A stretch of 24,000 bases of DNA. Source: Bacillota bacterium. Its GTDB lineage: Bacteria > Bacillota > DSM-12270 > Thermacetogeniales > Thermacetogeniaceae. The notes beneath the pieces are model-generated. The model worked only from the letters and a program-made list of their open reading frames with translations. It was not told the DNA's origin and did no database searches. A program made the position numbers and the translations under genes. Shown one piece after another: positions 6,195 to 24,000 of the stretch (its first letter is position 1; each line of letters starts with the position of its first letter). The DNA is taken from assembly GCA_013177945.1 (NCBI GenBank), contig JABLXW010000015.1, positions 31,395 to 55,394 on the forward strand, in the 5' to 3' direction.

Positions 6195-6312
6195 TCGTTT
6201 GCTTCCTTTAAGAAAGTCACCCTTGCTTTTGTAAAAATCTGCCGTTATAATGAATCAGAGGGCCTCAGAGGGCCAGAGAAATAAGGCACCGGGAAGGAAG
6301 AGGAGGTCAGCC

Positions 6313-7965: not shown

Positions 7966-8016
7966 TCTTTTATGGTTCTTTTAGAGCCATTTTTAAGGAC
8001 CGGCGGGGTGAGTTCT

Positions 8017-8699: not shown

Positions 8700-9060
8700 C
8701 CCTTTTCAGTTCAGGTGCAGGCAGGCTTTCTTCAAAGGAGAGCCTGTGCCTTCCTGCGAAATTCGTCGAAATGCGCCGTCTGCGGCTCCCCCGTCAGGCG
8801 TCCCGTCCGGCACAAGATAGTTTGCGAAAAGTGCAACCGCGTCTGGCACGCCGATGCCAACGCGGCGCTCAACATACTGCTTTCGGGCCCCTCGAAGAGG
8901 CACGGGGTGGGGGCCACGCCCCAGCGGCCGCGAGTACTCCGGTGGAACTGTCACCGGTGGGAAAGCCGCCGCAAATCCGCCGCCAAAAGCGGCGCTCCCC
9001 TGGCGGCGTGAGCCGCCTCGGGAATCCCCGGGCTTTTGCCCTGGGGAGGAAGTCAATCTT
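8700..9060 (+). mobile_element. tnpB: TnpB (IS200/IS605-family OrfB) 3' remnant, frameshifted
   Basis: RNSSKCAVCGSPV...KIVCEKCNRVWHADANAALNILLSG is the zinc ribbon plus the RuvC-III HADxNAAxNI motif. The tail PPRESPGFCPGEEVN sits in another frame over the hairpin ccccgggcttttgccctgggg. The N-terminal ~2/3 of the gene is absent. Confidence 0.7.
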
Positions 9061-9061
9061 A

Positions 9062-9286
9062 CTACTGGTTCTGTTTGTCAAAAACCTTGTACTGAGGCTC
9101 CTGCTGTTCGATGTAGTTGATCCGGCCCTTGATGCCGTCCCTGATCCTCTCCAGTTGGGAGGCGTAATCGGAAAACATCTTCTGGGCATTCTTGTCCTGG
9201 GTATCCAAAGCAAAGGACTTCAGTTCGGCGGTGACGGTTTCCAGTTGTGCCAGTAGCTGGTTCATTTTGACACCGATGGTCATCAC
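9062..9286 (-). CDS. DUF1657 family (spore-associated) protein
   Basis: TIGVKMNQLLAQLETVTAELKSFALDTQDKNAQKMF...IEQQEPQYKV is the characteristic DUF1657 pattern, including the EPQYK end. The RBS is AAAGGAGGAA. Confidence 0.85.
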   Translation of the reverse strand: MMTIGVKMNQLLAQLETVTAELKSFALDTQDKNAQKMFSDYASQLERIRDGIKGRINYIEQQEPQYKVFDKQNQ

Positions 9287-10034
9287 GATTTCCTCCTTTG
9301 AACATGTTGATTTTATTACTATTTTGCGCGCTTTTGGGAAAAAAATTTATGGTAAGGAAAGTTATATCCCAATTTCGCACCCTGAAATGAAACGGCCTTT
9401 AATTAATTTTTATGATGGCAGAAATGGAATGGCACCAATAAAAACTAGCAGCCCGTGTTAGTAATAAGGTTTATTGAGCACTTTAGCATCTTCCCCTTTT
9501 GGTCCTCAGTTTCCGGCGCCTGCGGTCCTTCAGGGTAAAGTTCTTGGGGATTCTCCCTCTTAAGAAGAAATCCACTTTTCTCAAAGATACCACATCACTA
9601 AATCCACGTAAATTTTTTGGATCAGGAAAAATCGCAGTTTCGGAAAACAGGAGAATGGCATCCCCGGACAAAGAGTCTTAGAAAATTGGAACTTCCACCA
9701 TCACCAGCCTCCTACGAGTCCTGGCGCTGCTTAAAGGTTACACCACTCGCTTGTTGCTTCAGCTTCACGAACCACTGTCCCAGGGAGGAGGGACTTCAAA
9801 AAGCTCAACAGAATCCGAATGGGAGTTCCCTCAAAATTCTGGATTCGACCCACACCAGAACCTTCCGTGCCCTCTGCCGGCAGCTTGAGGGCGGCACCTG
9901 CCGCCGCTGCTGCCTCTCCTGCTGCGCCGCCAACTGTTTTCTGCCCCTGCTTCGGGAAAGCATTCCTCGGGACTTTCCTCACTTAATTGTACCCGTGAAA
10001 GGATGTCGGTGATCGCCTTTGCAGTTAGCTGCGC

Positions 10035-10064
10035 TTGACGACCGTGCCCCGGCAGGGTTATACT
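10035..10064 (+). promoter_or_regulatory. Putative sigma-A promoter of the AbrB/VapC module
   Basis: TTGACG (10035-10040), an 18-nt spacer, then TATACT (10059-10064), about 35 nt upstream of the antitoxin ATG. Confidence 0.5.
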
Positions 10065-10099
10065 GGTGAGTGAGAAGTTATCCAGGGGGGCTCAAAGGT

Positions 10100-10378
10100 A
10101 TGCCTTATATTGCTACCGTATCACAAAAAGGGTGGGTGGTCATACCGAAGGAACTCCGCGCAAAGCTCAAGATCCGCCCGGGAAGCAAGGTCCTCCTCGT
10201 GGAAGGGGAGGAGGGCCTGGTGATTACACCTCTCCCCGAGGACCCGATTGCTGCTTTCAGGGGGATGCTCAAGGGCTTTCCCCTGGTGGAAGAGCTGCTG
10301 GAGGCCAGGAAGGAGGAGGCTGCCCGTGAAGAGCTACGTGCTGGACAGCTACGCGGTGCTGGCGTACTTCCAGGATGA
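10100..10378 (+). CDS. vapB: AbrB/MazE/SpoVT-family antitoxin (VapB-like)
   Basis: MPYIATVSQKGWVVIPKELRAKLKIRPGSKVLLVE is a swapped-hairpin AbrB-type motif. It lies directly upstream of, and overlaps, a PIN gene. Confidence 0.85.
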   Translation: MPYIATVSQKGWVVIPKELRAKLKIRPGSKVLLVEGEEGLVITPLPEDPIAAFRGMLKGFPLVEELLEARKEEAAREELRAGQLRGAGVLPG

Positions 10379-10745
10379 AGAAGGGGCAGCCCAGGTGGAG
10401 GGACTGCTCCGGGAAGCCGCTGCAGGAAAGGCATCCCTGATCCTGTCTGCCGTCAACCTTGGGGAGGTCGCCTACATCACCCAGCAGAAGGCCGGGGCGA
10501 AAGGCAGGCGCAAACTTCTGGCTGCGCTGGACGCCCTTCCGGTTACGGTTGTAGACGCCGACCGGGGCCTTGCCCTCGCGGCGGCGGAGATCAAGGTAAA
10601 ACACGCCGTTTCCTACGCCGATTGCTTCGCGCTCGCCCTGGCCCGGCGCAGCGGGGGAACTGTGGTCACGGGGGACCCCGAGTTTAAAAAGGCAGAGGGG
10701 GTCGCGCCGGTTCACTGGCTCCCGGAAAAACCCAAACAACGCTAA
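10326..10745 (+). CDS. vapC: PIN-domain toxin VapC
   Basis: VKSYVLDSYAVLAYF...NLGEV...SYADCFALALA...VVTGDPEF shows the PIN acidic residues. GTG 10326 is preceded by GGAGGAGG at 6-nt spacing. Confidence 0.9.
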   Translation: MKSYVLDSYAVLAYFQDEEGAAQVEGLLREAAAGKASLILSAVNLGEVAYITQQKAGAKGRRKLLAALDALPVTVVDADRGLALAAAEIKVKHAVSYADCFALALARRSGGTVVTGDPEFKKAEGVAPVHWLPEKPKQR

Positions 10746-10754
10746 ACCCCTCAA

Positions 10755-10943
10755 TTGATTTACCTTTATCTCAGCGGCCCCCGCAGCTCCAGGGGGGATG
10801 GAGTGCGAGGTAAGTTTGGTTTTTGCCTGCTTTTTGCAAACAAGAGCAAACAAGAGCAAACAAGAGAACCGACCCCTTGTTTTTTCTGTGCAGTCTGACG
10901 CAACAGGAGAACAGGACCGTTCCCTTGTTGCCCTTTGTTGCTC
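10755..10943 (+). repeat. Repeat family copy A (core + hairpin arms; 3 x caaacaagag)
   Basis: It shares cagcggcccccgcagctccaggggggatggagtgcgaggtaagtttggt.tttgcctgctttt.gcaaacaagag...aaccg.ccccttgtt with copies B-E. It fills the whole gap between two convergent vapC genes. Confidence 0.8.
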
Positions 10944-10945
10944 TT

Positions 10946-11407
10946 TCAATATACACGGAGGATGTTCTTTGAAGTTAAGAAAAAATGGCTGTCAAATGTG
11001 AATACATCCTTAATATCAGTTTGCTGCTCTAAAATCACAAAGCTCACGGCATCCACATACGAAATGGCTTGATCACTGTATTTTTTTATTAGACGAAGCG
11101 CTTCTCTTTCAATCTCCGGTGTTGAATAAACCACCTGCAAAAAACTCGTGTTTTCGGCTTCTTTTATGCTCTCCAAAAACCGCAGTGCCGTGCGATAATT
11201 AACATTATAACGAATAAATGTATAAGTTTCAGATATAACAAGGTTGCTGGTAACCTGCACAACCCTGCCGGCAACCATTGCTTTGAAAACTGTTTTGGCC
11301 GTTTCATGGTTGGCATCATGCCTGAGCGCTAACGCAATCCAGGCACCGGTATCTACAAACACCTTATGGCCTGCCATATAAATATCTGTCATGGTTAACC
11401 GACCCAT
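10946..11407 (-). CDS. vapC: PIN-domain toxin VapC
   Basis: KVFVDTGAWIALALRHDANH...SNLVISETYTFI...SYVDAVSFVILE...VFTFDSHF shows the PIN D/E/D/D pattern. ATG 11407 has GAGGGG 7 nt upstream. Alternative ATGs lie at 11392 and 11377. Confidence 0.9.
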   Translation of the reverse strand: MGRLTMTDIYMAGHKVFVDTGAWIALALRHDANHETAKTVFKAMVAGRVVQVTSNLVISETYTFIRYNVNYRTALRFLESIKEAENTSFLQVVYSTPEIEREALRLIKKYSDQAISYVDAVSFVILEQQTDIKDVFTFDSHFFLTSKNILRVY

Positions 11408-11633
11408 CCTGCGGCCCCTCTGTTTCGTCGCTTATGCCGACAATCTCCAGCAGGGGGTTTTCCTGAAGCCTTTTTTTCTCCTGGCTTATGAAATTATCCA
11501 GAGCTTCCCGGATGATCTCAGCCTCCGTTACCATTTTGATCTTTGCCAGCTTCTTCAGCTCTTCATCCTGCTCCGGGAAGATGTATGTCTGTTTCCTCAC
11601 CATGCGTTGAGCCCGCTCCCGGCTACCGCTCAC
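11364..11633 (-). CDS. vapB: Ribbon-helix-helix antitoxin (VapB-like)
   Basis: KQTYIFPEQDEELKKLAKIKMVTEAEIIREALDNFI is an RHH motif, and the C-terminus is HDRYLYG. GTG 11633 is preceded by GGAGGAGG at 6-nt spacing. The ORF-track ATG at 11669 lacks an RBS. Confidence 0.85.
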   Translation of the reverse strand: MSGSRERAQRMVRKQTYIFPEQDEELKKLAKIKMVTEAEIIREALDNFISQEKKRLQENPLLEIVGISDETEGPQDGSVNHDRYLYGRP

Positions 11634-11750
11634 AGCATCCCTCCTCCATTTAGAAATTGTTATATACATTGTAAATTATCGTTTATGATGTTGTCAAACC
11701 ACAAGCAAGCACACCTGCGCGCCACATCCTGGATCAGCACCTTGTAACCA

Positions 11751-11900
11751 GGATTTCCCCAAGCGCCCCCCACAACTTCAGGGGGATGGAGCGCGAGGTA
11801 AGTTTGGTCTTTGCCTGCTTTTCGCAAACAAGAGGACCGTCCCTGTGTTTGTGTAAAGATACCATATTTGCATCCCTTGCCTGCCTCTTGTTGCCCAAGC
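11751..11900 (+). repeat. Repeat family copy B (diverged hairpin)
   Basis: ggatttccccaagcgccccccacaacttcagggggatggagcgcgaggtaagtttggtctttgcctgcttttcgcaaacaagag matches the family core. The right arm is degenerate (gtccctgtgtttgtg ... cttgttgccc). Confidence 0.7.
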
Positions 11901-11940
11901 CGGAGGAATCGGCATCTTGTATCCCGGGCCGGCAAATGTT

Positions 11941-11968
11941 ATACTTGTAGTAATACTTGCAGTAGTAC
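11941..11968 (+). promoter_or_regulatory. Tandem palindromic operator-like sites upstream of the RHH/PIN module
   Basis: atACTTGTAGTAatACTTGCAGTAgtac holds two adjacent TACT-N3-AGTA palindromes, ending 3 nt before the AGGAGG RBS (11971) of the RHH gene. Confidence 0.5.
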
Positions 11969-11984
11969 AAAGGAGGTGCCGGGA

Positions 11985-12266
11985 ATGGGTGAAGGTTCAA
12001 ACAAGAGCAATACCAGCTTAAAAAAACCAAAAAAGCAGGCCTCTCAAATTACGGCGGTGAGACTGCCCTCCGAGGTTGTCTGCCGGATCGACGCCCTTGT
12101 GGGGAGGGGCAACCGCTCCAGGTTCATCGCAGCCGCCGTTGAAAAGGAATTAAAGCGGCGGGCGCGCCTTGCACACCTCGAAGAGGCGGGGGGTTTTATC
12201 CCTGACGACCTGGATGCCTTAGCCTTTGTGAACCGGCTGCGAGCTTGGGATGAGAGGGCTGATTGA
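11985..12266 (+). CDS. vapB: Ribbon-helix-helix (CopG/Arc-type) antitoxin
   Basis: ITAVRLPSEVVCRIDALVGRGNRSRFIAAAVEKEL is an RHH motif. AGGAGG lies 8 nt upstream of ATG 11985. The ORF-track start at 11811 lies inside repeat copy B. Confidence 0.85.
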   Translation: MGEGSNKSNTSLKKPKKQASQITAVRLPSEVVCRIDALVGRGNRSRFIAAAVEKELKRRARLAHLEEAGGFIPDDLDALAFVNRLRAWDERAD

Positions 12267-12668
12267 GTGGCTTCCCGCGGCTTTCTGCTCGACACCGATT
12301 TCTTGATCGATTTGAACCGGAGCAGGCGCCACGTTTTGCGCCAGCGGGCGGAAAAGCTCTTGCTCAGCATCAATGACGCCGACCTCTACATTTCCAGTGT
12401 GGCGGTTGCGGAATTCTTGACCGGGGTCCCGGAAGACAGACAGGAAGAAGTGCAGAAAATGCTCCAGGAGCAATACTTTTACCTTGCTCCTGCTTATGAG
12501 GAGGCTGTCTTTGCCGGAAGGCTGCGCCGGGAGTGGCTTGCGCGGGGCTATACCCTGGCTCTTTCCGATGTCACCAATGCTGCCCTGGCAATCTCCCGGA
12601 AACTGGCCCTGGTGACGAGGAATGTTTCTCACTACCCCTTTTCTGAGCTTGCGATTATTGAATGGTGA
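12267..12668 (+). CDS. vapC: PIN-domain toxin VapC
   Basis: FLLDTDFLIDL...SVAVAEFL...LSDVTNAALAI...LVTRNVSHY is the PIN pattern. The GTG start follows the antitoxin TGA immediately. Confidence 0.9.
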   Translation: MASRGFLLDTDFLIDLNRSRRHVLRQRAEKLLLSINDADLYISSVAVAEFLTGVPEDRQEEVQKMLQEQYFYLAPAYEEAVFAGRLRREWLARGYTLALSDVTNAALAISRKLALVTRNVSHYPFSELAIIEW

Positions 12669-12809
12669 CAGACTGATGCAAGGAAGACTGAAGGAAGAAG
12701 ATATGCTAGACGACATAGCAAAAATTGCCAAAGCCTTATTTACGTTTTCATTACGATGGTAGAACACCTGCTTTTTCTGAGATATAATATGCCCAGGAGG
12801 TGCTTGTAA

Positions 12810-13043
12810 ATGATTGAGCGTATTTCCATTGACCCTGCTGTCTGCCACGGGCAGGCTTGCATCAAAGGAACACGTATTCCTGTGCACCAGATTATTAGTA
12901 TGCTGGCAAACGGAGATACCATTGAGGAATTGTTAGAGGAGTACCCTTCCCTTAAAAGGGAAGATATTTTGGCATGCCTTGAATATGCTGCTTTACTTGC
13001 GGAAGAACAAATTATCCCGTTTGAGGCTATGAATAAGCCATGA
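12810..13043 (+). CDS. DUF433 domain protein (antitoxin-like)
   Basis: [56 protein letters not shown] is the canonical DUF433 pattern. The RBS is AGGAGG. A TATAAT lies at 12783-12788. Confidence 0.9.
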   Translation: MIERISIDPAVCHGQACIKGTRIPVHQIISMLANGDTIEELLEEYPSLKREDILACLEYAALLAEEQIIPFEAMNKP

Positions 13044-13153
13044 GGATTTATGTAGATGAAAATATCCCTGCAAAGACAGTCCGTGCTCTGCGAGAACTTG
13101 GTCATGAAGTATTTGATCACCGGGGTACGCCAAGAGAAGGGATCGCCGATCAA
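13040..13153 (+). pseudogene. DUF5615 (Mut7-C/PIN-like) toxin gene, truncated after ~38 codons by repeat copy C
   Basis: MRIYVDENIPAKTVRALRELGHEV is the DUF5615 N-terminus, with ATGA coupling to DUF433. From 13154 on, the sequence is identical to the repeat segment also present at 15987. Confidence 0.7.
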
Positions 13154-13379
13154 TCAGGGGGTCAGGCCCCATCTCAAGAAAGAAGAAGTCGCGGAGGCTT
13201 ATGCTGTTCTGAAAAGCAGCGGCTTGCTGGAAAGTTGAACTTTTACGCTCGCGATTTCCCCCGGCGGCCCCCGCAGTTCCAGGGGGATAGGGCATGAGGT
13301 AAGTTTGGTCTTTGCCTGCTTTTCCTTTTCGCAAATCGCAAACAAGAGAACCGTCCCCTTGTTTGCCCTTGTTTGCCAG
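13154..13379 (+). repeat. Repeat family copy C (long form)
   Basis: It is near-identical to 15987-16203. The shared sequence runs cagggggtcaggccccatctcaagaaagaagaagtcgcggaggcttatgctgttctgaaaagcagcggcttgctggaaagttgaacttttacgctcgcgatttccccc ... gtaagtttggtctttgcctgctttt ... caaacaagagaaccgtccccttgtttgcc. Confidence 0.85.
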
Positions 13380-13380
13380 T

Positions 13381-13412
13381 AAAATAAAAAACAGCAGGCA
13401 CATATCGCCTGC
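13381..13412 (-). terminator. Rho-independent terminator of the DUF4258-like/DUF2283 operon
   Basis: The minus strand reads GCAGGCgatatgtGCCTGC followed by tgTTTTTTATTTT, 16 nt after the DUF2283 stop. Confidence 0.7.
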
Positions 13413-13427
13413 AGATGCCTTTCCCAG

Positions 13428-13664
13428 TTACCGCTTGCTCGCGTTCAAAATGGTCACACCAACGACTTCGTTTCCCCGGTAGCGCACCACGATGTCGTCC
13501 GCAACGAATTCGCTGTCGTCAGCAGCAACCGGCTGCTCGGTGAAGTGCACATACAGAACGTCTCCTACCGGGTCGTAGGATGCCCGCAGGAGGGGAAGGC
13601 CGGATCTTACGACCGCTTGCGATACCGTTTCGGCAAGCTTAATATAGCTCATTGCTTCGGCCAT
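13428..13664 (-). CDS. DUF2283 family protein (antitoxin-like)
   Basis: ASYDPVGDVLYVHF...DDIVVRYRGNEVVGVTILNASKR is the DUF2283 pattern. The RBS is GAGGGTG. Its start overlaps the upstream gene by 16 nt. Confidence 0.85.
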   Translation of the reverse strand: MAEAMSYIKLAETVSQAVVRSGLPLLRASYDPVGDVLYVHFTEQPVAADDSEFVADDIVVRYRGNEVVGVTILNASKR

Positions 13665-13969
13665 ACAATCACCCTCTTTTCCAGTTGCCTAACCTTCCGG
13701 GTTAGGAATGCTGTTATGATGAATCCGTCACCAGGGCCTGTTTCCTTATACACCACTACCAGGAACTTCCCGGCCGTTATTTCCCGGATGGCCAACAACT
13801 CACCGCGGCTCCCTGACAAAACTTTAAGGGGTCTCCTGACGGTGAGAAGCACCTCCCGGCGCAATTCTTCGAGTTCCGGATGCTCCTCGACTATATGCTG
13901 CCACCGTTCCTCTGACAGTCTAATCCAGATACCGGAAACAGCATGTGTTCCCATCCTCTGCTCGGTCAC
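13649..13969 (-). CDS. Small toxin-like protein (DUF4258-like pattern) paired with DUF2283
   Basis: IRLSEERWQHIVEEHPEL...VLLTVRRPLKV...GKFLVVVYKE...GFIITAFLTRK is the pattern of the small proteins usually found upstream of DUF2283. The family name is uncertain. The start is GTG after GGAG. Confidence 0.7.
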   Translation of the reverse strand: MTEQRMGTHAVSGIWIRLSEERWQHIVEEHPELEELRREVLLTVRRPLKVLSGSRGELLAIREITAGKFLVVVYKETGPGDGFIITAFLTRKVRQLEKRVIVWPKQ

Positions 13970-14040
13970 TATTCTCCAGCTCTCCTTCTATGACACTAGT
14001 CTATCAGAAATCTGGCAGGTCAGCAATATTATGATAAAAT

Positions 14041-14300
14041 CAGAACAAAAGTTCCCTTCCGTTTAGGCATTTCCCCGAACGCTTCTGGTTGTACCCGGGG
14101 ATGTCGTCCTGCGTTGCAGCCCCAATGCTTTTGAGCTTTTACGCCCGGGATTTCCCCCGGCGGCCCCCGCACCTCCAAGGGGGATGGAGTGCGAGGCAGG
14201 TTTGGTCTTTGCCTGCTTTTCGCAAACAAGAGCAAACAAGAGAACCGTACCCTTGTTTGCCAGTCCCCTTGTTTGCCCCCTTGGTTGCCCTTGGTTGCAA
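14041..14300 (+). repeat. Repeat family copy D: compact composite (L arm + core + hairpin arms), MITE-like
   Basis: The L arm agaaca...gttcccttccgtttaggcatttccccgaacgcttctggttgtacccggggatgtcgtcctgcgttgcagccccaatgctt is also at 15733-15823. It is joined directly to the core (cttttacgcccgggatttcccccggcggccccc...gggggatggagtgcgagg...). The right end has 2 x caaacaagag and 2 x ccttgtttgcc. Confidence 0.8.
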
Positions 14301-14331
14301 CCCTGCAAAGGGCGCAATGTTTGGGGGCGCC

Positions 14332-14360
14332 TTCGCATTAGATCAGGAAACTGGTATAAT
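14332..14360 (+). promoter_or_regulatory. Promoter inside the duplicated ~100-bp promoter/leader cassette (copy 1)
   Basis: TTCGCA (14332-14337), a 17-nt spacer, then TATAAT (14355-14360). It is preceded by the hairpin GGCGCaatgtttggggGCGCC. The leader ends in GGAGG, 9 nt before ATG 14411. The same cassette is found at 19047-19153. Confidence 0.6.
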
Positions 14361-14389
14361 ATAACTGATATTAATATAGATGAGAATAA

Positions 14390-14985
<596 letters not shown>

Positions 14986-15107
14986 GGCACTGGTTCATGA
15001 GCAGCTCCAACGGGGGGAGGTGGACGTGCTCCGCCCGTATCTTTTGCTTGAGCGTTACCGGCAATTACTGGAGGATCTCCACGAGCCTTGCCGTTGTGGC
15101 GGAGCGG

Positions 15108-15150
15108 CATGAAGAAAAACCGGTCGGCTGCTGGAAAGTTAAACTTTGCG
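15108..15150 (+). repeat. Short diverged fragment of the repeat family (copy F)
   Basis: gaagaaaaaccggtcggctgctggaaagttaaactttgcgcc resembles gaaaagcagcggcttgctggaaagttgaacttttacgc of copies C and E. Confidence 0.4.
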
Positions 15151-15201
15151 CCTAATTTTCTGTTTTATACTTTATGCTAGAGAAAAATCGGAGTGAGGCT
15201 T

Positions 15202-15546
15202 ATGATTTCCGGCTTGAATCCTTTGCGGGAAACCGATAAAAAGGCTGTCGTGGAGTTCTGCACCCTCCTCCGGAGGAAGCTGAAAGACAACTTGCGGCAG
15301 ATCAGATTGTTCGGCTCTAAGGCCAGGGGAGATGACGACCCCGAGTCGGATATTGACATCCTGCTGCTTGTGGAAAAACGAGATCCTGTTGTAGAAGATC
15401 AAATTATTGACATCGCCTATGAGGTAAGTTTGAAATACGATGTTGTCATGATGCCGGTAGTGCTGTCAGTTGACGAGTATTTGAGTTCCTTATCGAGAGC
15501 CAGCCTTTTTTACCGTCATACTCAAAACGAAGGTCTGGTATTATGA
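15202..15546 (+). CDS. Minimal nucleotidyltransferase (MNT-type)
   Basis: IRLFGSKARGDDDPESDIDILLLV is the NTase motif. The RBS GGAGTGAGG precedes ATG 15202. It has an ATGA overlap with the downstream HEPN ORF. Confidence 0.85.
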   Translation: MISGLNPLRETDKKAVVEFCTLLRRKLKDNLRQIRLFGSKARGDDDPESDIDILLLVEKRDPVVEDQIIDIAYEVSLKYDVVMMPVVLSVDEYLSSLSRASLFYRHTQNEGLVL

Positions 15547-15743
15547 ATGAGGATTTTCTCGCATTGGCTCGGTTTCGCGTGAACAGAGCAAAAGAGACGC
15601 TGTCCGAGACCAGGCTGTTGTTGGATGCCGGGCATCTAAACGGTGCGGTTAACCGCTTGTATTATGCTGCTTTTTATGCCGCCCGTGCTATCCTGGCTAC
15701 CAAAGGGCTCGATTCATCGAAACACAGCGGCGTAGAACAGTAG
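15543..15743 (+). pseudogene. HEPN gene truncated at ~66 codons by repeat copy E
   Basis: FRVNRAKETLSETRLLLDAGHLNGAVNRLYYAAFYAARAILATKGLDSSKHSGV parallels the first half of the intact HEPN at 8017-8421. The last codons and the stop fall in the L arm of the repeat, and the C-terminal R..DY half is missing. Confidence 0.7.
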
Positions 15744-16203
15744 TTCCCTTCTATTTAGACATTTCTCCGAACCCTTCTGATGTATACCCCAGGATGTCGT
15801 CCTGCGTCGCAGCCCCAATGCTTCTTGCATACTTTGGCAATGACGTTAAAGCAAAGGTGGAAAAGCTGCTTTCGATCTTGGGAGACAAACCGGTGCGGTT
15901 CCTGGAGTGCGTAGCCACCACCCATTATGCTTACCGTTCCTGCTCCCTGAGGAAAACAGGTCATTTGCTTCCCTTGAGAAAGTCGTCAGGGGGTCAGGCC
16001 CCATCTCAAGAAAGAAGAAGTCGCGGAGGCTTATGCTGTTCTGAAAAGCAGCGGCTTGCTGGAAAGTTGAACTTTTACGCTCGCGATTTCCCCCAATGGC
16101 CCCCACAGCTCCAGGGGGATGGGGCATGAGGTAAGTTTGGTCTTTGCCTGCTTTTCGCAAACAAGAGAACCGTCCCCTTGTTTGCTACGTCCCCTTGTTT
16201 GCC
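15733..16203 (+). repeat. Repeat family copy E: long composite (L arm + ~160-bp unique insert + long core + hairpin arms)
   Basis: The L arm 15733-15823 matches 14041-14130. The segment 15987-16203 matches 13154-13379. It ends with caaacaagagaaccgtccccttgtttgctacgtccccttgtttgcc. Confidence 0.8.
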
Positions 16204-16408
16204 ATTTTGCCCGGGGCATTCGCAGTTTTTGCCTTTGAAGATCTTGAGGGGGATTCCATTTTCAGTACCGGCCGGGAAGACAACCGGGAAGGCAAAAATT
16301 TGCGTGATTTTCGGCGGGGCAGTGATTTTACTTTTTAAGGAAGGGCGCTGGGAATAGCCGACTCCACTCCCTCACGGGCCCCCTGGATGACTCGAGGATC
16401 TTTAAACT

Positions 16409-16843
16409 TTGGGCTTTCAGCCGGAAGAAAAAGTAAAGGTGAAAGTGGAATTCATGCGCATGCTGGCCCGGATGAAGCTGGACCCGGCCCGGATGGAACT
16501 GTTGGCCGGCTTTTTCGAGACTTACTTGAAACTGAACCGCAAGGAAGAAGAACAATATAACCGGGAACTGGGTAAACTGGATAGCAAGGAGGTTGACGTA
16601 ATCATGCAGATTACTACTGGTTGGCATGAAAAAGGTCGTGCGGAAGGCAAAATCGAAGCCAAGCGGGAAGTTATATGCAAATACCTGTTCCGCAAGTTTG
16701 GGGATAAATCGTCTGACCTGCAACAAAAGGTCCAGCAGATAACCAGTCTGGAAGTGCTGGACTATGTCCTGGAGGAGCTTTTTGCCGCCAATACCATCGA
16801 AGAAGCCCGGGCCGTTGTCAATAACGGTGCAGGTGTCATTTAA
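16409..16843 (+). pseudogene. C-terminal fragment of an Rpn/YhgA-like (transposase_31) protein, DUF4351-type tail
   Basis: EFMRMLARMKLDPARMELLAGFFETYLKLNRKEEEQYNRELGKL...TTGWHEKGRAEGKIEAKREVICKYLFRKFG...LEVLDYVLEEL is the typical Rpn-family C-terminal region. The N-terminal PD-(D/E)xK half is absent, and in-frame stops lie just upstream of the TTG at 16409. Confidence 0.5.
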
Positions 16844-16872
16844 ATAGGCGGGATTAGCGAGAGATAATTTTT

Positions 16873-16935
16873 TTGGTCGAGGAAGCCCCGGAAGGTGGTT
16901 ACACAGCACGAGCCCTCGGCCACTCTATATTATTT
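16873..16935 (+). pseudogene. Possible HicB-like antitoxin N-terminal fragment
   Basis: LVEEAPEGGYTARALGHSI resembles the 'E..eGGY.A.al..sI.tqG' N-terminus of one HicB-like family. A TAA lies 4 codons upstream, and the similarity is lost after about 20 codons. Confidence 0.3.
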
Positions 16936-17280
16936 ATTTTTTACTCTCGTTTTAAGCAGCAAGGCCCCTCCCGAGCACCATGTCAGAACATTCCGCGTCG
17001 CCCCTTGGAGTTCAGCGCACCAACCCCCGTTTCGCTTGCCTGCCGATCGGTGCTGTGTTTTTAAAATCCCAGATTGCCTTGTTGATCGGGCAGGAAGTTC
17101 CGGCTTTTTGTCGAATTTCCTTTTTGTGGTTTTTCTTTACAGCGATGACGAATTAGTTCCTGAAGCTTGAGAGGTCATTGGGACTGAGTGGGATGCGCTT
17201 CAAGATCCCAGAGTTGGAATGATTTGCTTTCGGTGCCAAGATGAGAAAGGAAGATTATTGGAAAATTTCTGCAAATCAGC

Positions 17281-17310
17281 ACAAAAGGCAGGAAAATCCT
17301 GCCTTTTGTC
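17281..17310. terminator. Perfect 12-bp hairpin, bidirectional terminator-like
   Basis: ACAAAAGGCAGG-aaaat-CCTGCCTTTTGT. The A/T runs flank a GC core, so either strand yields a stem followed by U-rich sequence. Confidence 0.55.
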
Positions 17311-17414
17311 GAATCCTAAATTCTAAATCCTAAAACTATAAGACCTCAGGTCCAAATAAAAATTATCCTCCGTTTCAAGAGCCAAATTGTTTATCAAGGA
17401 GTCAAATCGTTTGA

Positions 17415-17843
17415 ATGAGAAAAAAGCATGTCACCGTCATAATTACTTCTCTTAGTTTGTCTGTGCTTCTTCTCATTCTTCTTTTGCATTACAATAGCTG
17501 GCTGGTCGGTGCCGTTAAGAGGCAGGCAGAAGACGTTCTGGTGAGCGTAATTACCACCATTTTAGTATCAGCTGGAAGCGGAGCGGTAATCTGGTTCCGC
17601 AAGTATTATAAGCAGCGCAGGAAACACCAGATACCGTACCACCGCGAATTCAGGATAGGCAGATGGACACCTTCCCGCGACGTTCCCTTTATTTTTGCCG
17701 ATGGAGTAGATCTCGATAAGCCCCGGCGCCTGTCACCGGCCGAGATTCACTGCGGGGAGGTCGAATCCCGTTTTAAATCCCTTCTGACTTATTGCCTTAC
17801 CGGGAGACGATCGTTGAAGCCTACAGCAGAGAGGGGTTTTTAA
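17415..17843 (+). CDS. Two-TM membrane protein (possibly the N-terminal part of a frameshifted TM-Nudix gene)
   Basis: There are two clear hydrophobic helices (VTVIITSLSLSVLLLILLLHY and VLVSVITTILVSAGSGAVIWF) followed by a basic RKYYKQRRKH stretch. An AT-rich upstream region precedes it. The 3' end overlaps the next ORF by 52 nt in another frame. Confidence 0.55.
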   Translation: MRKKHVTVIITSLSLSVLLLILLLHYNSWLVGAVKRQAEDVLVSVITTILVSAGSGAVIWFRKYYKQRRKHQIPYHREFRIGRWTPSRDVPFIFADGVDLDKPRRLSPAEIHCGEVESRFKSLLTYCLTGRRSLKPTAERGF

Positions 17844-18667
17844 GGCTTACCGATGGCCAGATCGTCAGACTGGAGTCATTTACTTTGGTGCGCCCTCGTG
17901 CTGACGAGCCGCCTGAATGGATTTTATCCTTCAGTCCGCTCTCATATTTTGACTTCATCTGCACAAACCTGGCCCTCACCCCTACATTTAAGCCCGTTGT
18001 TCTGCCTGCGCCTGTTTTAGATGCGCTTAACAAGCACCGGGCGAATGTCGAGCAAAAAATAACCTTTAGAGAAGTACTGGACTGTTCTTGCCTGGGCAAC
18101 GGGCTGACCCTGCACCTGAACGTGATCGACGCGGATAACAAGCTGCTCGTCGGGCGCCGTCCCAAAGACCTCCCGATTTACGGCGGGAAGCTGGTTACTT
18201 CTGTCACCGGCGCCGTGAGCTGGAACGACCGGAGGTGTGAAGGGGTGCCGCCGGATCCTTTCCTGGCTGCCGTAAGGGAGGCCCGTGAGGAAACGGGCAT
18301 CACATTGCTCAAACGCGATGTTTTCTTCTACGCTCTGGGAATGCAGGGAGACCAGCGGCATCCTCTGCTGTTAGGTGCGGTCAGGCTGGAAGACAGGCTG
18401 GAGAATGTTCTCAAAACCTGCCGGGATGCCTGGGAAAACGAGGTGTTTTATTACCTGGACCTGGACGATCTTGATACCTGCGCTGCGGTTCTCGTTTACG
18501 GCGACTGGATACCCGCCAGCGCCGTTGCCGTGGCCTTGTCCCTGCTGGACCAGCACGGCTATAAAAGCGTTGAGGATGCCTTCAACCGGGCCGAGCAGCG
18601 GAAGTACAAGGCGTGGCTTTCGAGGACGCCCTGGCACCGGCGGAAAAGATGGTCTTTGCTGGCTTAA
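17792..18667 (+). CDS. Nudix-fold hydrolase-like protein with a ~100-aa unknown N-terminal region
   Basis: LHLNVIDADNKLLVGRRPKDLPIYGGKLVTSVTGAV...PFLAAVREAREETGITL has a canonical second half of the Nudix box (REx2EExGI) and a non-canonical, lengthened first half. The only upstream start is TTG 17792, which has no RBS. Alternatives are TTG/GTG at 17885/17888 after GGAG. Confidence 0.7.
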   Translation: MPYRETIVEAYSREGFLRLTDGQIVRLESFTLVRPRADEPPEWILSFSPLSYFDFICTNLALTPTFKPVVLPAPVLDALNKHRANVEQKITFREVLDCSCLGNGLTLHLNVIDADNKLLVGRRPKDLPIYGGKLVTSVTGAVSWNDRRCEGVPPDPFLAAVREAREETGITLLKRDVFFYALGMQGDQRHPLLLGAVRLEDRLENVLKTCRDAWENEVFYYLDLDDLDTCAAVLVYGDWIPASAVAVALSLLDQHGYKSVEDAFNRAEQRKYKAWLSRTPWHRRKRWSLLA

Positions 18668-19112: not shown

Positions 19113-19173
19113 ATAACTGGTATGAATGTAGATGAAAATAAGAGTTCGTGGAGGTAAGAGGAGCGTGAAAGAT

Positions 19174-19440
19174 ATGAAACAGCGCGTCGTCGTGCGGGTG
19201 GAAATCTTCCGCGAAGGTGATCTGTACGTGGGTCTCTGCCCAGACTTGGAAGTCTCAAGCTTTGGGGAGACGATCACCGAAGCGAAGGATTCTCTTCGAG
19301 AGGCTTTGGAGGCTTTCCTCGAGGAATGTGAAGCGATGGGGACCCTGGAGGAGGTTTTAGAGGAAGCGGGCTACCTCCGGCAGGATGGGACTTGGCTACC
19401 GCGTCAACCGGTCTCAGCTGAACTGGTCGCCCTCGGGTAA
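19174..19440 (+). CDS. hicB: HicB family antitoxin
   Basis: VVVRVEIFREGDLYVGLCPDLEVSSFGETITEAKDSLREALEAFLEE is the HicB/UPF0150 pattern. ATG 19174 follows GAGGAG. The ORF-track start at 19132 lies in the shared leader cassette. Confidence 0.85.
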   Translation: MKQRVVVRVEIFREGDLYVGLCPDLEVSSFGETITEAKDSLREALEAFLEECEAMGTLEEVLEEAGYLRQDGTWLPRQPVSAELVALG

Positions 19441-19448
19441 ACAGGGTT

Positions 19449-19688
19449 ATGGCTTCTCGTAAGATTACACCCATTCCCTATCAGAAGCTGGTAAAAATTT
19501 TCGAGCTAGACGGCTTTACCATCAAACGCCAAAAGGGGGACCACCTGATTTTGACGAAGCCAGGGGCGAAGCGACCGGTTGTGATTAAGAAAAGCCCACG
19601 TGAGGTGCCTGTAACCCACATCTTAACGAATTTAAAAACCGCAGGGATGAGTCGTGAGCGCTATTTGGAACTGCGGGCTCAGGTATAG
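19449..19688 (+). CDS. hicA: HicA family mRNA-interferase toxin
   Basis: ITPIPYQKLVKIFELDGFTIKRQKGDHLILTKPGAKRPVVIKK is the YcfA/HicA pattern (G-x-H motif). It lies 8 nt downstream of hicB. Confidence 0.9.
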   Translation: MASRKITPIPYQKLVKIFELDGFTIKRQKGDHLILTKPGAKRPVVIKKSPREVPVTHILTNLKTAGMSRERYLELRAQV

Positions 19689-19714
19689 TGCTGGAGCCGC
19701 GGGTTCCCGCGCCT

Positions 19715-19815
19715 GCCGAGACTTTGGCAACTTTCAAGACCCTTTTCAGGAGGTACTCTCCCGAGCGCGTCCTCTGGCGCTACGACCCGATTGTTTTGAG
19801 CAAGTTCACCCTGCC
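19715..19815 (+). pseudogene. Internal fragment of a DUF1848-family gene
   Basis: ETLATFKTLFRRYSPERVLWRYDPIVLSKFT matches the conserved '...PERViWRYDPIilt' block of DUF1848 proteins. About 33 codons are visible, with no N- or C-terminal remainder. Confidence 0.55.
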
Positions 19816-19915
19816 AGCGGGGGAACTGTGGTCACGGGGGACCCCGAGTTTAAAAAGGCGCAAGGGGTCGCGCCGGTTCACTGGCTCCCGGAAAAACCCA
19901 GATAACGCTAACCCC
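19816..19915 (+). pseudogene. vapC: 3'-terminal fragment of a second copy of the vapC at 10326-10745
   Basis: agcgggggaactgtggtcacgggggaccccgagtttaaaaaggc.....ggggtcgcgccggttcactggctcccggaaaaaccca.a.aacgctaa.ccc is near-identical to 10649-10750. It encodes GGTVVTGDPEFKKAQGVAPVHWLPEKPR*. Confidence 0.8.
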
Positions 19916-22196
19916 GATGTTGTCCTGGCCCGCCGGGGGGCGTGTTCTCTTTCAAAACATCCTTTAGAAATCTTCCTAACGCTTTCCTCCCTTCCCTGGC
20001 GGGTTTTGCAGATTCCATCTGATACTGTTCGATTTCCGGCCCATTTTCCGGGTTCCAATCAACAAAATTTAAAATGTGCATTTTCTTTCCCTGGGGCGGT
20101 ATGAGGAAATCCATTAACCTGTGGGTTAGTTCCTCATGGTGGCTCACGATAAACAGTTGGCGCCGCGGGCTGTCATCATCGCCGGTCCCATAAACGATTT
20201 GCCTTAACAGTGCAGCCTCCCGGGGTAGCTGTGCCATGTCGAAGGATGTCGTGGTATCATCCAGGGCAATGATCCCGTGACGCAAAAAACTGATATCCAG
20301 GGATATGTTCAGCCCCAGGAGCAGCGAAAGGGCAAGTTGAGACTGCTGCCCTGTAGAAAGTGAGGTTAAAGTGCGACCGTCTGCGGTTTTAAATTCCCAG
20401 ATTCCCTGTTGATTTCTTCCTTGTTTTCTTTGCGAGCTTTGGATTCTCACAGGGAGAATACCCCGAACCAGGCGAAACCTGTAGAGAATTTTGTTTATCA
20501 ATTCTGCAAGCTTTTGGGCTTCGCTATCCGGAACCTGACGGATGCTTTCTAGAACTGATTTCTCCGGTGTAATCTCCCTATTCAATGCATCCTTCAAAAT
20601 TCTAATTTGCTCTTTTGCCTTCCTGTATTGGCCCGACTTCTTCAGTTGTTCCTGGCGATTCAGGTCTCTTTTTTCAACGTCAATCCATTTGTCCAAAGCC
20701 TTTAGAATGTCATCGGCCAATTTAACAGGATGCGTTTCAGATTTTGATGTGGCATCGCGAAAAGCCTGACCGGCTTCGAGTTTCGCTCTCTGTCCGGCCC
20801 TTTCCTGCGCTTTTTTTAGAAGTTCCTGCGCGTCGGCAGAAGTATTTGCCATCTTCTTGATTTCTTCGAGTATATCAATGGTTGTCTTGCACTCAGAAAG
20901 CTCTCTTTCCTGTTTATTAACAGCTGTTGAAAGCCTGCTTCGCTCGTTTTCCACCTGTTCCTGCCAGCTTGCCAATATTTCATCGAGGTGCTTTCCATTA
21001 ACAGCAAGGGAAGTATAGGCTGTATTAAGCCAATTCATAACTTCCACAGGTGGACGCATATATTCATTATTGGAACCAACATCTAATTGTTGCCATTCGT
21101 GCCCGTGCTGGCGAAGTGATTGCATAATTTCCAGCAAACCGGGCCCTTCAGGACTCTTGAAATGATTCTCCACTTTTAACAGCAATTGAAGCCTTTCTTT
21201 GTTTTTGGCCAACTCTTTCCCCAACTCCAGGCAGTTATTCTTCAAAGCGTCAATTTGTTTCAATTTCAGTATATTCGTGGCGTCGGGAAGGCTGGCGATC
21301 AGGTGATTCAGCCGTTCCGCCGTATCGCTTTTTGGGAGGATATGCTTTATTTTGAGCTCATTGATGAGGGTTTGAAAGTATATCAAGGTGGATGTTATAT
21401 TCATGTCTTCGCTTGGTTTCTGCAGGCCCATATAATTGCTGAAGCTGAGAGTAAAATCGGCGAGCTTTTTTTGCCAGTCCTTTCTCAAGTCTCCCCCGGT
21501 CTTTAAGACGTCGATGACGGGAAGTTCCCGTGGTGCAATATTGAAATTTTCCACTACAAAGATGAGTTGCCGCCATAAATCTGTTACGCTGCGAGCAATT
21601 TCCTCCCTCTCTTTGTTTAATGCCGCCTCGCTTTCAACTCCGGTTATGACCAGCGTTCTCTCCTTTTGCTCTACTTGTTTTAGGGCCTCTTTAAGCGCGG
21701 AACGCGCTACTTCAACCTCCTCAGGTGGGGGCGCCAGAAAGTCCTTAAGGGTTGTTCCTCGTGTAAAATTATCAAAAGTCTCCTCAACCAGATCCTGATA
21801 GAAAAAACTTGCCTTTGCTGTAATTTCTCTTGCAGAAGGTGATCGATGCCAGATCGGGTCGCTGCATTCGGGGGAACCTTTTTTAGGAACAGTAACCGTC
21901 ACATTTTTTTCAGCACCACTTGTTTTTAAGATGGTTGCTTCTAACGTAGTCTTTTCAGGGAAGTACTTTATCTCTGGCAATTCAAAGATAACAGGTTCCC
22001 TGAGCGGGTGAAGGTGACCTGTAAGGAGCAGGCAGAGCGCATCGATCAAGCTGGTTTTACCGAATCCGTTGGGCCCGGTAATTAAAACAACATCTGCATC
22101 GGTGTTTAACGGTTTATTAAGCTTTTTTATCCCGCGAAAATCGCAGATGTTGATAGACTTAACTCTTAAAATACCTTCATTACTGGTGGTAAACAT
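19908..22196 (-). CDS. Coiled-coil ABC/SMC-type ATPase (RecF/RecN/SbcC-like head; LmuB/ABC-3C-like)
   Basis: The N-terminus is ILRVKSINICDFRGIKKL...VVLITGPNGFGKTSLIDAL (Walker A). A ~450-aa region rich in E/K/L/Q is predicted helical. The C-terminus carries LSTGQQSQLALSLLL (ABC signature), HGIIALDDTTTSFD (Walker B/D-loop, DD rather than DE) and LFIVSHHEE (H-loop). The RBS is AGGGGGG. Confidence 0.9.
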   Translation of the reverse strand: MFTTSNEGILRVKSINICDFRGIKKLNKPLNTDADVVLITGPNGFGKTSLIDALCLLLTGHLHPLREPVIFELPEIKYFPEKTTLEATILKTSGAEKNVTVTVPKKGSPECSDPIWHRSPSAREITAKASFFYQDLVEETFDNFTRGTTLKDFLAPPPEEVEVARSALKEALKQVEQKERTLVITGVESEAALNKEREEIARSVTDLWRQLIFVVENFNIAPRELPVIDVLKTGGDLRKDWQKKLADFTLSFSNYMGLQKPSEDMNITSTLIYFQTLINELKIKHILPKSDTAERLNHLIASLPDATNILKLKQIDALKNNCLELGKELAKNKERLQLLLKVENHFKSPEGPGLLEIMQSLRQHGHEWQQLDVGSNNEYMRPPVEVMNWLNTAYTSLAVNGKHLDEILASWQEQVENERSRLSTAVNKQERELSECKTTIDILEEIKKMANTSADAQELLKKAQERAGQRAKLEAGQAFRDATSKSETHPVKLADDILKALDKWIDVEKRDLNRQEQLKKSGQYRKAKEQIRILKDALNREITPEKSVLESIRQVPDSEAQKLAELINKILYRFRLVRGILPVRIQSSQRKQGRNQQGIWEFKTADGRTLTSLSTGQQSQLALSLLLGLNISLDISFLRHGIIALDDTTTSFDMAQLPREAALLRQIVYGTGDDDSPRRQLFIVSHHEELTHRLMDFLIPPQGKKMHILNFVDWNPENGPEIEQYQMESAKPAREGRKALGRFLKDVLKENTPPGGPGQHRG

Positions 22197-22246
22197 GTTC
22201 CCCCCTAACCCCCCTGTGTTAAAATACCCGTTCGTTTTTGCTATGT

Positions 22247-22975
22247 TTATTTCTCTCCGGCAATTCTGTCGATTTCTGAGAGCGATTCAGCAGTCCACTC
22301 TAATATTGCGTCTTTAATAGAGTTGCCGGTTTCCCAGGATTGGATTATTGTGTTCATTAACTCCCGGTGTTTGTCAGTTGATTTTTCAGACCTGTATGTG
22401 TCTTTCAACATTTTGAGATATACCTTTGATTCAAGTTGTTTTATTTTATCCGACTCTGTCCAGAGGGCGGTTGCGCCGGATAGCAGAGAGTAGATAACCT
22501 TTGTCTCATCACCGCTTGGAGCATAAAACAGGGAAAAATCGCCGCGATGCCAGTCCTGATCTGCCGCCCATAAGGTTACATCGTTTTCCAGGATCTCCTC
22601 ATCCATGCCTTCAACGGGAGAAATAACTCCTATTACCGGTACTATCACCCCTTGCTGCTCTGCATAGCCGCTTAGCAATCGCAGAATCCCGGCAATTGCT
22701 TCTTTAATTTCAGAAATGCTGTCATGAAGCTTCTGTGTTGCTAGTTTTACGGTAAAGTGCACGGCGAGTGCCACATCGGTAAGGTAAACCTCACTGACGG
22801 CCAGGAGTTTTTCATCTCTTTCTAGTAGTGAGGATACAAGCCTGTTTTTTGTGTTCTTATCAAGCTTAAGCCGCCAGTTGGCAATTGACTTTGGATCAAT
22901 TACGATATCCTCATACAAAGCGATCACCCTGCTATAAGATTTTCTTTGCCCGCCATCTAATCCCGCGGCGAGCAT
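22247..22975 (-). CDS. Hypothetical protein, 'middle' gene of the ATPase operon
   Basis: This ~242-aa ORF is AT-rich and has no motif I recognise. ATG 22975 (TTG 22984 in the ORF track) overlaps the upstream gene by 44-53 nt. A 50-nt gap separates it from the ATPase start. Confidence 0.7.
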   Translation of the reverse strand: MLAAGLDGGQRKSYSRVIALYEDIVIDPKSIANWRLKLDKNTKNRLVSSLLERDEKLLAVSEVYLTDVALAVHFTVKLATQKLHDSISEIKEAIAGILRLLSGYAEQQGVIVPVIGVISPVEGMDEEILENDVTLWAADQDWHRGDFSLFYAPSGDETKVIYSLLSGATALWTESDKIKQLESKVYLKMLKDTYRSEKSTDKHRELMNTIIQSWETGNSIKDAILEWTAESLSEIDRIAGEK

Positions 22976-24000
22976 TGGCCGCAATAAGCTTAGCCGCTCT
23001 CAACGATGCGAAGAACTTTTCTCTTGTTGCATCAACGCTCGATGGTGCTTTGGAATCCCAGCAGAAGATGTCTCTAAAAGGGAGTTTGTAAATAGTAACC
23101 CTCTTTTTCATATTGAGTTCCCGGGCACTATTTGATTCCTGGAGATCGACTTTTTGGTGGATAATTTCCGCTCGTTCTACTGATTTAGAACTGACAACGA
23201 TTCCAATGCTGATGTTGTTGTTAAGCAAAACATTTTTATTTCCAAGAGCTTTTTGCAGCACGCTTGTATCGTGAACAATAAAAACCGGCAGGTTCGCAAA
23301 GATTTTCAGGATGAAAAGGTTATTCTCAATACACACCACCCTGTTTATTTCTTCCCATTTCCTTCTATTGCCGGCAACGAAAAAGAGGATTAAAAGAACC
23401 AGGGGAAGCAGTACGGGCTTTTCTAGCAATGGCAGGTAGGCCCCCGGGTTGCAGTATGTTCTGCTGTACCTGATGCAGTTTATCCATTTTGTTAGTGTAG
23501 TTACATGTAAATGGTTATCTAGTGCCAGCAGTTGCGGGAAACGCCCGAAGGGTGCTTTGGCAGGGGCGAGCCAGTTAGTAAAATCGGACAGCAAAGCGTC
23601 TACAGGGTGAATGCAAGAAGAGAGGTAAGCATAAAACGGAGTATCCGGTCTACAGCATTTTTTAAACAGCTGCCAAAAAGCTGCCTGGTATACTTTTTCC
23701 CAAAATACGTCAGCTGACAAACAACTATCTTTGATTCCTGGATCGAGATCTTTGGCATCAGCGCCCGTAAATACATTTTTGTGGATATTGCAGTAAGCCA
23801 GGGAATCGTTGTGTGCAATGGCGTAAGAATGAAGAATTTGCACCTGGTTAAAGGTGAGGTTGCATTCATACGCAGCTATGAAAGGGGCGTTAGGCAGATT
23901 CCAGCAGGATCTTTGTTTTGCTTGGCGGCCTCCGGGCCTCCTTCCGTTAATACATTCCGAATTTTGAAATTCCTCTGCAATTTGCAGGACAGTATGTCTT
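22932..24000 (-). CDS. Hypothetical Cys-rich protein, first visible gene of the ATPase operon, probably 5'-partial
   Basis: The ORF track starts at GTG 23843, which has no RBS. My translation of the same frame stays open to the window edge: RHTVLQIAEEFQNSECINGRRPGGRQAKQRSCWNLPNAPFIAAYECNLTFNQ-VQILHSY. It contains one hydrophobic stretch (KPVLLPLVLLILFFVAG). I recognise no motif. Confidence 0.65.
   Translation of the reverse strand, partial: RHTVLQIAEEFQNSECINGRRPGGRQAKQRSCWNLPNAPFIAAYECNLTFNQVQILHSYAIAHNDSLAYCNIHKNVFTGADAKDLDPGIKDSCLSADVFWEKVYQAAFWQLFKKCCRPDTPFYAYLSSCIHPVDALLSDFTNWLAPAKAPFGRFPQLLALDNHLHVTTLTKWINCIRYSRTYCNPGAYLPLLEKPVLLPLVLLILFFVAGNRRKWEEINRVVCIENNLFILKIFANLPVFIVHDTSVLQKALGNKNVLLNNNISIGIVVSSKSVERAEIIHQKVDLQESNSARELNMKKRVTIYKLPFRDIFCWDSKAPSSVDATREKFFASLRAAKLIAANARRGIRWRAKKIL

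Follow-up and report, generated by a model that had tools for sequence, protein, structure and literature searches.

The far end of a 24,000-nucleotide stretch of a Bacillota genome (assembly GCA_013177945.1, contig JABLXW010000015.1, positions 31,395 to 55,394; hereafter the window) contains three co-directional minus-strand open reading frames (ORFs) at 19908-24000, with an ATPase gene last in order. Do these genes form a defence operon and, if so, is its type a new one? The original prediction, which located the three genes correctly, took them for a Lamassu type II/ABC-three-component (ABC-3C)-like system and drew its high novelty from an effector that could not be recognised. The operon is here predicted, with a probability of about 0.72, to be an anti-phage or anti-plasmid system of Lamassu type II (ABC-3C), composed of lmuA, lmuC and lmuB in this order and armed with a SIR2 effector. 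The best match of the ATPase to LmuB, the conservation of the trio and the Walker B DD of the ATPase bear out the proposed architecture. The claim of an unrecognisable effector does not stand, SIR2 being among the effector classes already catalogued for Lamassu. The genes and the sequence elements at their starts are as follows.

22932-24000, minus strand: lmuA-like effector gene (gene 1), C-terminal 355 codons (residues 287-641), an ORF running off the window end
22924-22930, minus strand: Shine-Dalgarno-like AGGGTGA, 5 nt upstream of the TTG start of gene 2, read from the sequence
22247-22918, minus strand: lmuC-like middle gene (gene 2), 223 amino acids, TTG start, placed by a 16-sequence alignment and the gene call of the public contig L001
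22200-22214, minus strand: G-rich Shine-Dalgarno-like stretch upstream of the ATPase ATG (22196), within the 50-nt intergenic gap, read from the sequence
19908-22196, minus strand: lmuB-like gene (gene 3), 762-residue Rad50/SMC-type ABC ATPase, from the ORF, Pfam and PADLOC

The effector gene beyond the window end

Gene 1 runs off the window with 355 visible codons, as originally described. An exact-protein look-up of the ATPase retrieves a public contig of 5.2 kb (L001) that is identical to window 19871-24000 and reaches 1,110 nt beyond the window end, completing gene 1 to 641 amino acids (L001:254-2179). Residues 1-286 lie beyond base 24000, and a SIR2 domain (residues ~1-300) is encoded at 24001-24857 on the L001 extension. 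Pfam SIR2_2 matches residues 172-299 with 60.7 bits against a cut-off of 24.5. The original prediction found no known LmuA effector signature. This is true of the 355 visible residues, because the window starts at residue 287 and shows the C-terminal domain only, but not of the full-length protein.

The structure of gene 1 is read from an AlphaFold2 model of P0064, an orthologue with 57-60% identity. The model has a mean predicted local distance difference test (pLDDT) of 88.8 and a predicted template modelling score (pTM) of 0.91, and matches ThsA, DSR2, Avs5, SPARSA and SIR2-HerA with a Foldseek probability of 1.00. The remaining ~340 residues form a compact C-terminal domain of helices and β-sheet. 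Gene 1 is therefore built from an N-terminal SIR2 domain and a ~340-residue C-terminal domain. Single-sequence and profile searches of the PDB with gene 1 return weak SIR2 motif hits only.

A hydrophobic stretch of the protein (PVLLPLVLLILFFVAG, residues 481-496; 23370-23417, minus strand) had been called transmembrane-like. The aligned region of the P0064 model (helix 454-466) is modelled confidently within the compact C-terminal domain (block pLDDT 93-95). The transmembrane reading is therefore rejected, and the stretch is probably a buried core helix.

At residues ~70-100, the SIR2 domain contains an inserted cysteine cluster (WCC...C...C..C). It is conserved in part of the family only and may be what is left of the zinc-binding module of sirtuins, or a variant of it. 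At the other end of the protein, effectors throughout the family share a basic tail made of the last ~14 residues (22932-22975, minus strand; consensus R..R.R(A/T)K.I/L), which may contact the ATPase or DNA.

The closest relative of the locus, L002 (GCA_029907475.1), has 95% nucleotide identity to window 19944-24000. There, two overlapping ORFs of 285 and 411 amino acids (L002:7345-9266) take the place of a single SIR2 effector gene, and the middle and ATPase genes are intact. Either a frameshift has turned the effector gene into a pseudogene or the assembly is wrong at this point.

The ATPase, the middle protein and conservation of the trio

The product of gene 3 is a Rad50/SMC-type ATPase whose head is split and whose middle is long and helical. 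Pfam SMC_N covers amino acids 12-693 (4.8e-11), and AAA_23 also matches. Conservation of its motifs was assessed in an alignment of 30 homologues reaching down to 25-29% identity.

22053-22076, minus strand: Walker A GPNGFGKT (amino acids 41-48); G41, N43, G44, G46, K47 and T48 invariant
21789-21806, minus strand: Q-loop region FFYQDL (amino acids 131-136); Y133, Q134 and D135 nearly invariant
20343-20360, minus strand: ABC signature LSTGQQ (amino acids 613-618); S614 and Q617 invariant, G616 nearly invariant
20256-20273, minus strand: Walker B IIALDD (amino acids 642-647), of the hhhhDD type; D646 and D647 invariant
20136-20144, minus strand: H-loop SHH (amino acids 685-687); S685, H686 and H687 invariant

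FFYQDL is assigned to the Q-loop from ABC ATPase architecture. The other four motifs, and the length of 762 amino acids, had been noted originally and are all confirmed. The original prediction also saw an oddity in the DD, in place of DE, that ends the Walker B motif. The DD is present, but it is no oddity, being the published consensus of long-Lamassu LmuB. In the centre of the protein (amino acids ~340-415; window 20950-21180, minus strand), where a hook or hinge is expected, lies a conserved non-heptad segment containing Pro, Gly and Trp, in which F346, L354, W368 and W411 are invariant or nearly so.

Among the 5,027 defence-protein models of PADLOC, the best match of the ATPase is LmuB (PDLC03859, 7.3e-18), extending over the C-terminal two thirds of the protein. 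The LmuB models match 29-30 of the 30 family members, whose lengths range from 692 to 790 amino acids, with a best value of 9e-25; matches to mad3 are almost as good. When the family profile is compared with the PDB, Rad50 and SMC heads are found at ~1e-8, the Rad50 head being closest.

The start of gene 2 is the TTG at 22918, from which 15 homologues align and which AGGGTGA precedes. The spacer between the stop of gene 1 (22932) and this start is 13 nt. The gene 1/gene 2 overlap of 44-53 nt and the size of ~242 amino acids given for gene 2 in the original prediction are artefacts of the longest ORF (TTG 22984, 245 amino acids), while the 50-nt gap between gene 2 and the ATPase gene is as stated there.

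Gene 2 was said to contain no recognisable motif, and both sequence and fold searches agree. It has no match in Pfam, NCBIfam or PADLOC, and sequence and profile searches of the PDB yield nothing useful. Its AlphaFold2 model (pLDDT 83.5) is composed of an α/β N-terminal domain and a helical C-terminal part. A PD-(D/E)xK nuclease reading, prompted by fold hits to XPF/Mus81 and a nickase, was not adopted because of the low template modelling (TM) scores of these hits (at most 0.32) and the absence of the canonical motif order.

A HMMER scan of 1.84 billion representative proteins identifies just 194 relatives of gene 2. About ten of them are 935-1070 amino acids long and carry the gene 2 domain at the N terminus. 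In two loci (L021:829-3786 and L022:1994-4933), a gene 2-like protein is fused to the N terminus of the ATPase, and the products are 985 and 979 amino acids long. The linker in these fusions is ~25 residues long; thus, the middle protein is probably located beside the ATPase head, as predicted for long LmuC. The assignment of gene 2 as LmuC is based on position, size, co-inheritance and fusion rather than on demonstrated homology.

Gene neighbourhoods were collected for ATPase homologues of 93% to ~27% identity and for eleven genome loci found independently through gene 2, and profiles of the three proteins were run against all of them. Wherever a locus has enough sequence, a SIR2 protein (~590-730 amino acids) is followed by the middle protein (~210-250) and the ATPase (~690-790), often with overlapping genes. 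The exceptions are a degenerate copy (L020) and loci cut by contig ends. The trio is found in Moorellaceae, Peptococcaceae, Desulfofundulus, Koleobacter, Rhodocyclaceae, Phycisphaerales and Gammaproteobacteria, and homologues of gene 1 occur also in Sorangium, Cellvibrio and Halomonadaceae. The flanks vary at every locus and abound in defence and mobile genes, including toxin-antitoxin (TA) pairs, an OLD-family ATPase, a DUF499 protein, type I restriction-modification genes, insertion sequence elements and type III CRISPR. The trio, kept across phyla amid these differing flanks, is passed on as a single unit that has spread among phyla and entered defence islands.

The operon block has a GC content of 45.3%, compared with 54.3% in the remaining window and 62.8% in the first 5 kb, where polysaccharide-synthesis genes occupy the left end. 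The AT-richness claimed for the block is thus real. GC at third codon positions (GC3) is 0.46-0.48 in the three defence genes.

Classification among known systems and the SIR2 active site

Published Lamassu operons have the gene order lmuA-lmuC-lmuB, and SIR2 is among the LmuA effector domains in long and short Lamassu alike. Lamassu with a SIR2 effector is a class already described computationally, and the SIR2 domain of gene 1 therefore shifts the system towards the already known. The published Walker B motif is hhhhDD in long LmuB and D[Q/S/T/E] in the short forms, and long LmuB is reported always to possess a single CxxC zinc hook (PNAS 2025 / bioRxiv 10.1101/2025.04.02.646746). LmuB averages ~600 amino acids in the short form and ~800 in the long form, and the C-terminal domains of long LmuA consist of helices and β-sheet. 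LmuC has reportedly diverged too far for sequence methods, with long LmuC weakly resembling the C-terminal domain of SbcD, and Lamassu has been proposed to derive from SbcCD.

Several results weigh against the Lamassu assignment. The SIR2-type LmuA model of PADLOC matches just 13 of the 39 gene 1 homologues, and the LmuA match to the gene 1 protein is confined to the N-terminal GAGxS region (E = 0.006). None of the PADLOC LmuC models matches gene 2 or its 15 homologues. Foldseek hits of the gene 2 model are weak (TM ≤ 0.32), comprising human Mre11 (E = 6e-3), XPF/Mus81-type domains and the Nt.BspD6I nickase, and no solved LmuC is among them. Likewise, no solved LmuB chain appears among the best 60 PDB hits of the ATPase family profile. 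A CxxC zinc hook is absent from 27 of the 30 ATPases, and the other three have CxxC at non-homologous positions. Finally, Asn (N229) occupies the position of the catalytic His of SIR2 in all 60 aligned sequences and in all 118 full-length homologues. The original prediction held that strong hits of all three proteins to a catalogued Lamassu subtype would mark the system as known; the matches to LmuA and LmuC models are weak or absent. A missing LmuC match is, however, expected even for true members because LmuC is too divergent for sequence methods.

The system most closely resembles long Lamassu with a Sir2 effector. The two share the gene order of effector, middle protein and SMC-like ATPase, a prototypical Walker A and an hhhhDD Walker B in the ATPase, and an effector with an N-terminal SIR2 domain and a large C-terminal domain of helices and β-sheet. 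In length, the middle protein exceeds short LmuC; it probably lies near the ATPase head, and the locus resides in a defence island. The ATPase, at 762 amino acids (family 692-790) against ~800 in long LmuB, falls between the short and long averages. Three features are unusual here: the ATPase has no CxxC hook and carries the Pro/Gly/Trp segment at its apex, the catalytic His of SIR2 is replaced by Asn, and the middle protein is missed by the PADLOC 2023 LmuC models. In addition, the effector is marginal for the LmuA models.

Short Lamassu, represented by DdmABC/Vc-Cap4 (solved as LmuA1-B2-C1), is likewise a three-component system with the same gene order and also lacks a zinc hook. Its SMC-like ATPase senses DNA ends and its effector is held inactive through the C-terminal domain, the latter presumed to apply to the present locus as well. 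However, its effector is a Cap4 nuclease instead of SIR2, its LmuB is ~160 residues shorter on the ~600-residue average, and its Walker B ends in D[Q/S/T/E] instead of DD. No sequence-level match to the solved chains is found, and the gene 2 model does not match solved LmuC.

Among PDB structures, Rad50 is the nearest to the ATPase head, and the weak Mre11 match of gene 2 is in line with the proposed origin of long LmuC from the C-terminal domain of SbcD. The present system differs from SbcCD/Mre11-Rad50 in lacking a nuclease partner and a zinc hook, in its far shorter coiled coil and in being mobile and patchily distributed.

The mixture of long and short hallmarks (Walker B DD and ~760 residues, but no zinc hook) could also mean that the trio represents a distinct branch of Lamassu, with a His-to-Asn SIR2 domain that catalyses ADP-ribosylation or a non-classical NAD+ reaction in place of bulk NAD+ hydrolysis, and with a sub-branch built into the 5' end of type III-B cmr operons, in some cases with LmuC fused to LmuB. 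This proposal is tentative, and on balance improbable. If it is true, an SMC-like DNA sensor and a SIR2 effector would be functionally coupled to a CRISPR interference complex.

Alternatively, a Rad50/SbcC-like ATPase may have independently recruited a SIR2 protein and an unrelated adaptor, in which case the likeness to Lamassu is convergent. This is consistent with an ATPase family profile nearer to Rad50/SMC heads than to any solved LmuB, with mad3 matches almost equal to those of LmuB, with the missing zinc hook and with the failure of gene 2 to match any LmuC model. An independent origin is nevertheless unlikely. LmuB is still the best defence-ATPase model, with a match over the C-terminal two thirds of the protein, and the invariant Walker B DD is a signature of long Lamassu. 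Moreover, Rad50-like features and an unmatched LmuC are compatible with Lamassu membership, given the proposed SbcCD ancestry and the reported divergence of LmuC.

In the SIR2 active site, N229 lies in the motif YK(I/L/V)NGCA. In a profile alignment to SeThsA, kinG is positioned opposite kLHG, with the N facing the His. The other SIR2 active-site motifs, GAGxS, TTNYD (N177, the catalytic Asn, and D179) and GFGSxEPQ, are invariant; G29, A30, G31, N177 and D179 never vary, and S33 is present in 59 of the 60 sequences. This conservation argues for a working NAD+ site. Because the catalytic His is Asn throughout the family, the reaction predicted from the sequence may be ADP-ribosyl transfer or an altered NAD+ cleavage, not classical NADase activity.

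The SIR2 NADases of other defence systems (ThsA of Thoeris, DSR2, SIR2-HerA, SPARSA and Avs5) share the SIR2 fold, the GAGxS and TNYD motifs, and an N-terminal effector joined to a sensor or adaptor part. They keep the catalytic His, such as H171 of DSR2, whereas the present family has Asn. Their sensor is a fused SLOG, HEAT-like or STAND domain, whereas here it is a separate SMC-like ATPase. PDB entry titles list the His mutants DSR2 H171A and KomC (a SIR2 NADase) H146N. The sole precedent for an active sirtuin without the His is SirTM (class M sirtuins), in which Gln replaces it and the enzymes are still active on NAD+ as ADP-ribosyltransferases. SirTM differs in having Gln with a partner Arg, in its macrodomain/GcvH-L operons and in its role in the oxidative stress response, and is not related to the present family by context or close sequence.

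The uniform Asn, set against the His of KLHG in the ThsA alignment, could instead indicate that SIR2 is a non-catalytic module that binds NAD or ADP-ribose or serves as a scaffold, with toxicity residing in the effector C-terminal domain or in gene 2. The deposition of an H-to-N mutant of KomC fits this idea, as does the weakly nuclease-like N-terminal domain of gene 2, with its hits to XPF/Mus81-like domains, Nt.BspD6I and Mre11. A non-catalytic SIR2 domain is nonetheless quite doubtful, since the invariant GAGxS, TTNYD and GFGSxEPQ motifs point to a working NAD+ site, the His-less SirTM enzymes are active, and gene 2 has no conserved PD-(D/E)xK-type motif arrangement and only low-scoring fold hits.

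It is barely conceivable that the ATPase is a housekeeping DNA-repair protein (a RecN, SbcC or RecF orthologue) with incidental neighbours: some database names label its homologues RecF or SbcC, and NCBIfam gives partial matches to both at the P-loop only, but the scores are far below the cut-offs (RecF, 34.3 against 172; SbcC, 17.8 against 478.5), the taxonomic distribution is patchy, operon GC is below that of the neighbouring DNA, no sbcD or recN context is present, and synteny is not conserved, each locus having its own flanks around the still linked SIR2 and middle genes, which rules out such a role.

Surroundings, proposed mechanism and significance

The operon was described as adjoining a scar of gene fragments and a TA array, and both are present. 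The neighbouring features of the window are as follows.

19688-19810, plus strand: DUF1848 fragment of 39 residues (profile positions 88-126 of 262), abutting the ATPase 3' end
19132-19688, plus strand: HicB-like (UPF0150) and HicA toxin pair, directly adjoining the operon on its downstream side, in convergent orientation
5368-5904 and 15193-15546: nucleotidyltransferase (MNT) genes of the TA-type array
10946-11407: PIN gene of the TA-type array
6250-6714 and 7972-8421: HEPN genes of the TA-type array
582-2744, plus strand: polysaccharide biosynthesis protein (Polysacc_synt_2, 1.4e-118), GC3 0.75

The DUF1848 fragment is a decaying gene and corresponds to the scar; the relative L002 has a longer DUF1848 gene (174 amino acids) at the same place. 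The polysaccharide biosynthesis gene, judged by its GC3, is the edge of the native GC-rich chromosome. Several further ORFs of 150-400 amino acids in 3338-18667 have no Pfam match. Searches of the window for tRNA genes, tandem repeats and CRISPR arrays find none, and no cas genes are present at its own locus. The few short direct or inverted repeats are chance-like, with no sign of integration-site repeats. A promoter and terminator scan of L001 gives counts not above those of shuffled sequence, and no promoter is claimed.

A different setting is seen for the five most divergent ATPase homologues (P0045-P0049). Their SIR2/middle/ATPase modules are located directly upstream of a type III-B cmr operon, with the module 3' end overlapping the first cmr gene (L009:3475-14193, L021:1-9719, L022:1-7308, L023:2209-13973 and L025:868-12359). 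The cmr operon encodes a RAMP protein, Cas10/Cmr2 with intact HD and GGDD motifs, Cmr3, a second RAMP protein and Cmr5. A literature search found no paper tying Lamassu-like modules to cmr operons.

A mechanism can be proposed by analogy with the Lamassu complexes solved from Vibrio and Bacillus. An ATPase dimer and one middle protein would keep one effector monomeric and inactive, through the effector C-terminal domain and the middle protein. The latter probably sits near the ATPase head, as the natural fusions and the prediction for long LmuC suggest. Ends or replication intermediates of an invader are examples of the abnormal DNA that the ATPase would sense. ATP hydrolysis would then free the effector, which could oligomerise and become active. 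Its SIR2 domain would attack or consume NAD+ and halt the growth of the infected cell, resulting in abortive infection.

Lamassu systems are present in roughly 10-15% of prokaryotic genomes. To our knowledge, mechanistic work on them has so far dealt entirely with nuclease (Cap4) effectors of the short form, and a literature search found no study of a SIR2-type Lamassu. The locus also holds a lesson for annotation, in that its effector appeared unrecognisable only through truncation at the window edge. The natural LmuC-LmuB fusions indicate the docking site of the middle protein, and the cmr-linked relatives hint at SMC-type sensors cooperating with type III CRISPR. A clade with a natural His-to-Asn site provides a tractable test of whether defence sirtuins need the His, or whether some of them act as ADP-ribosyltransferases.

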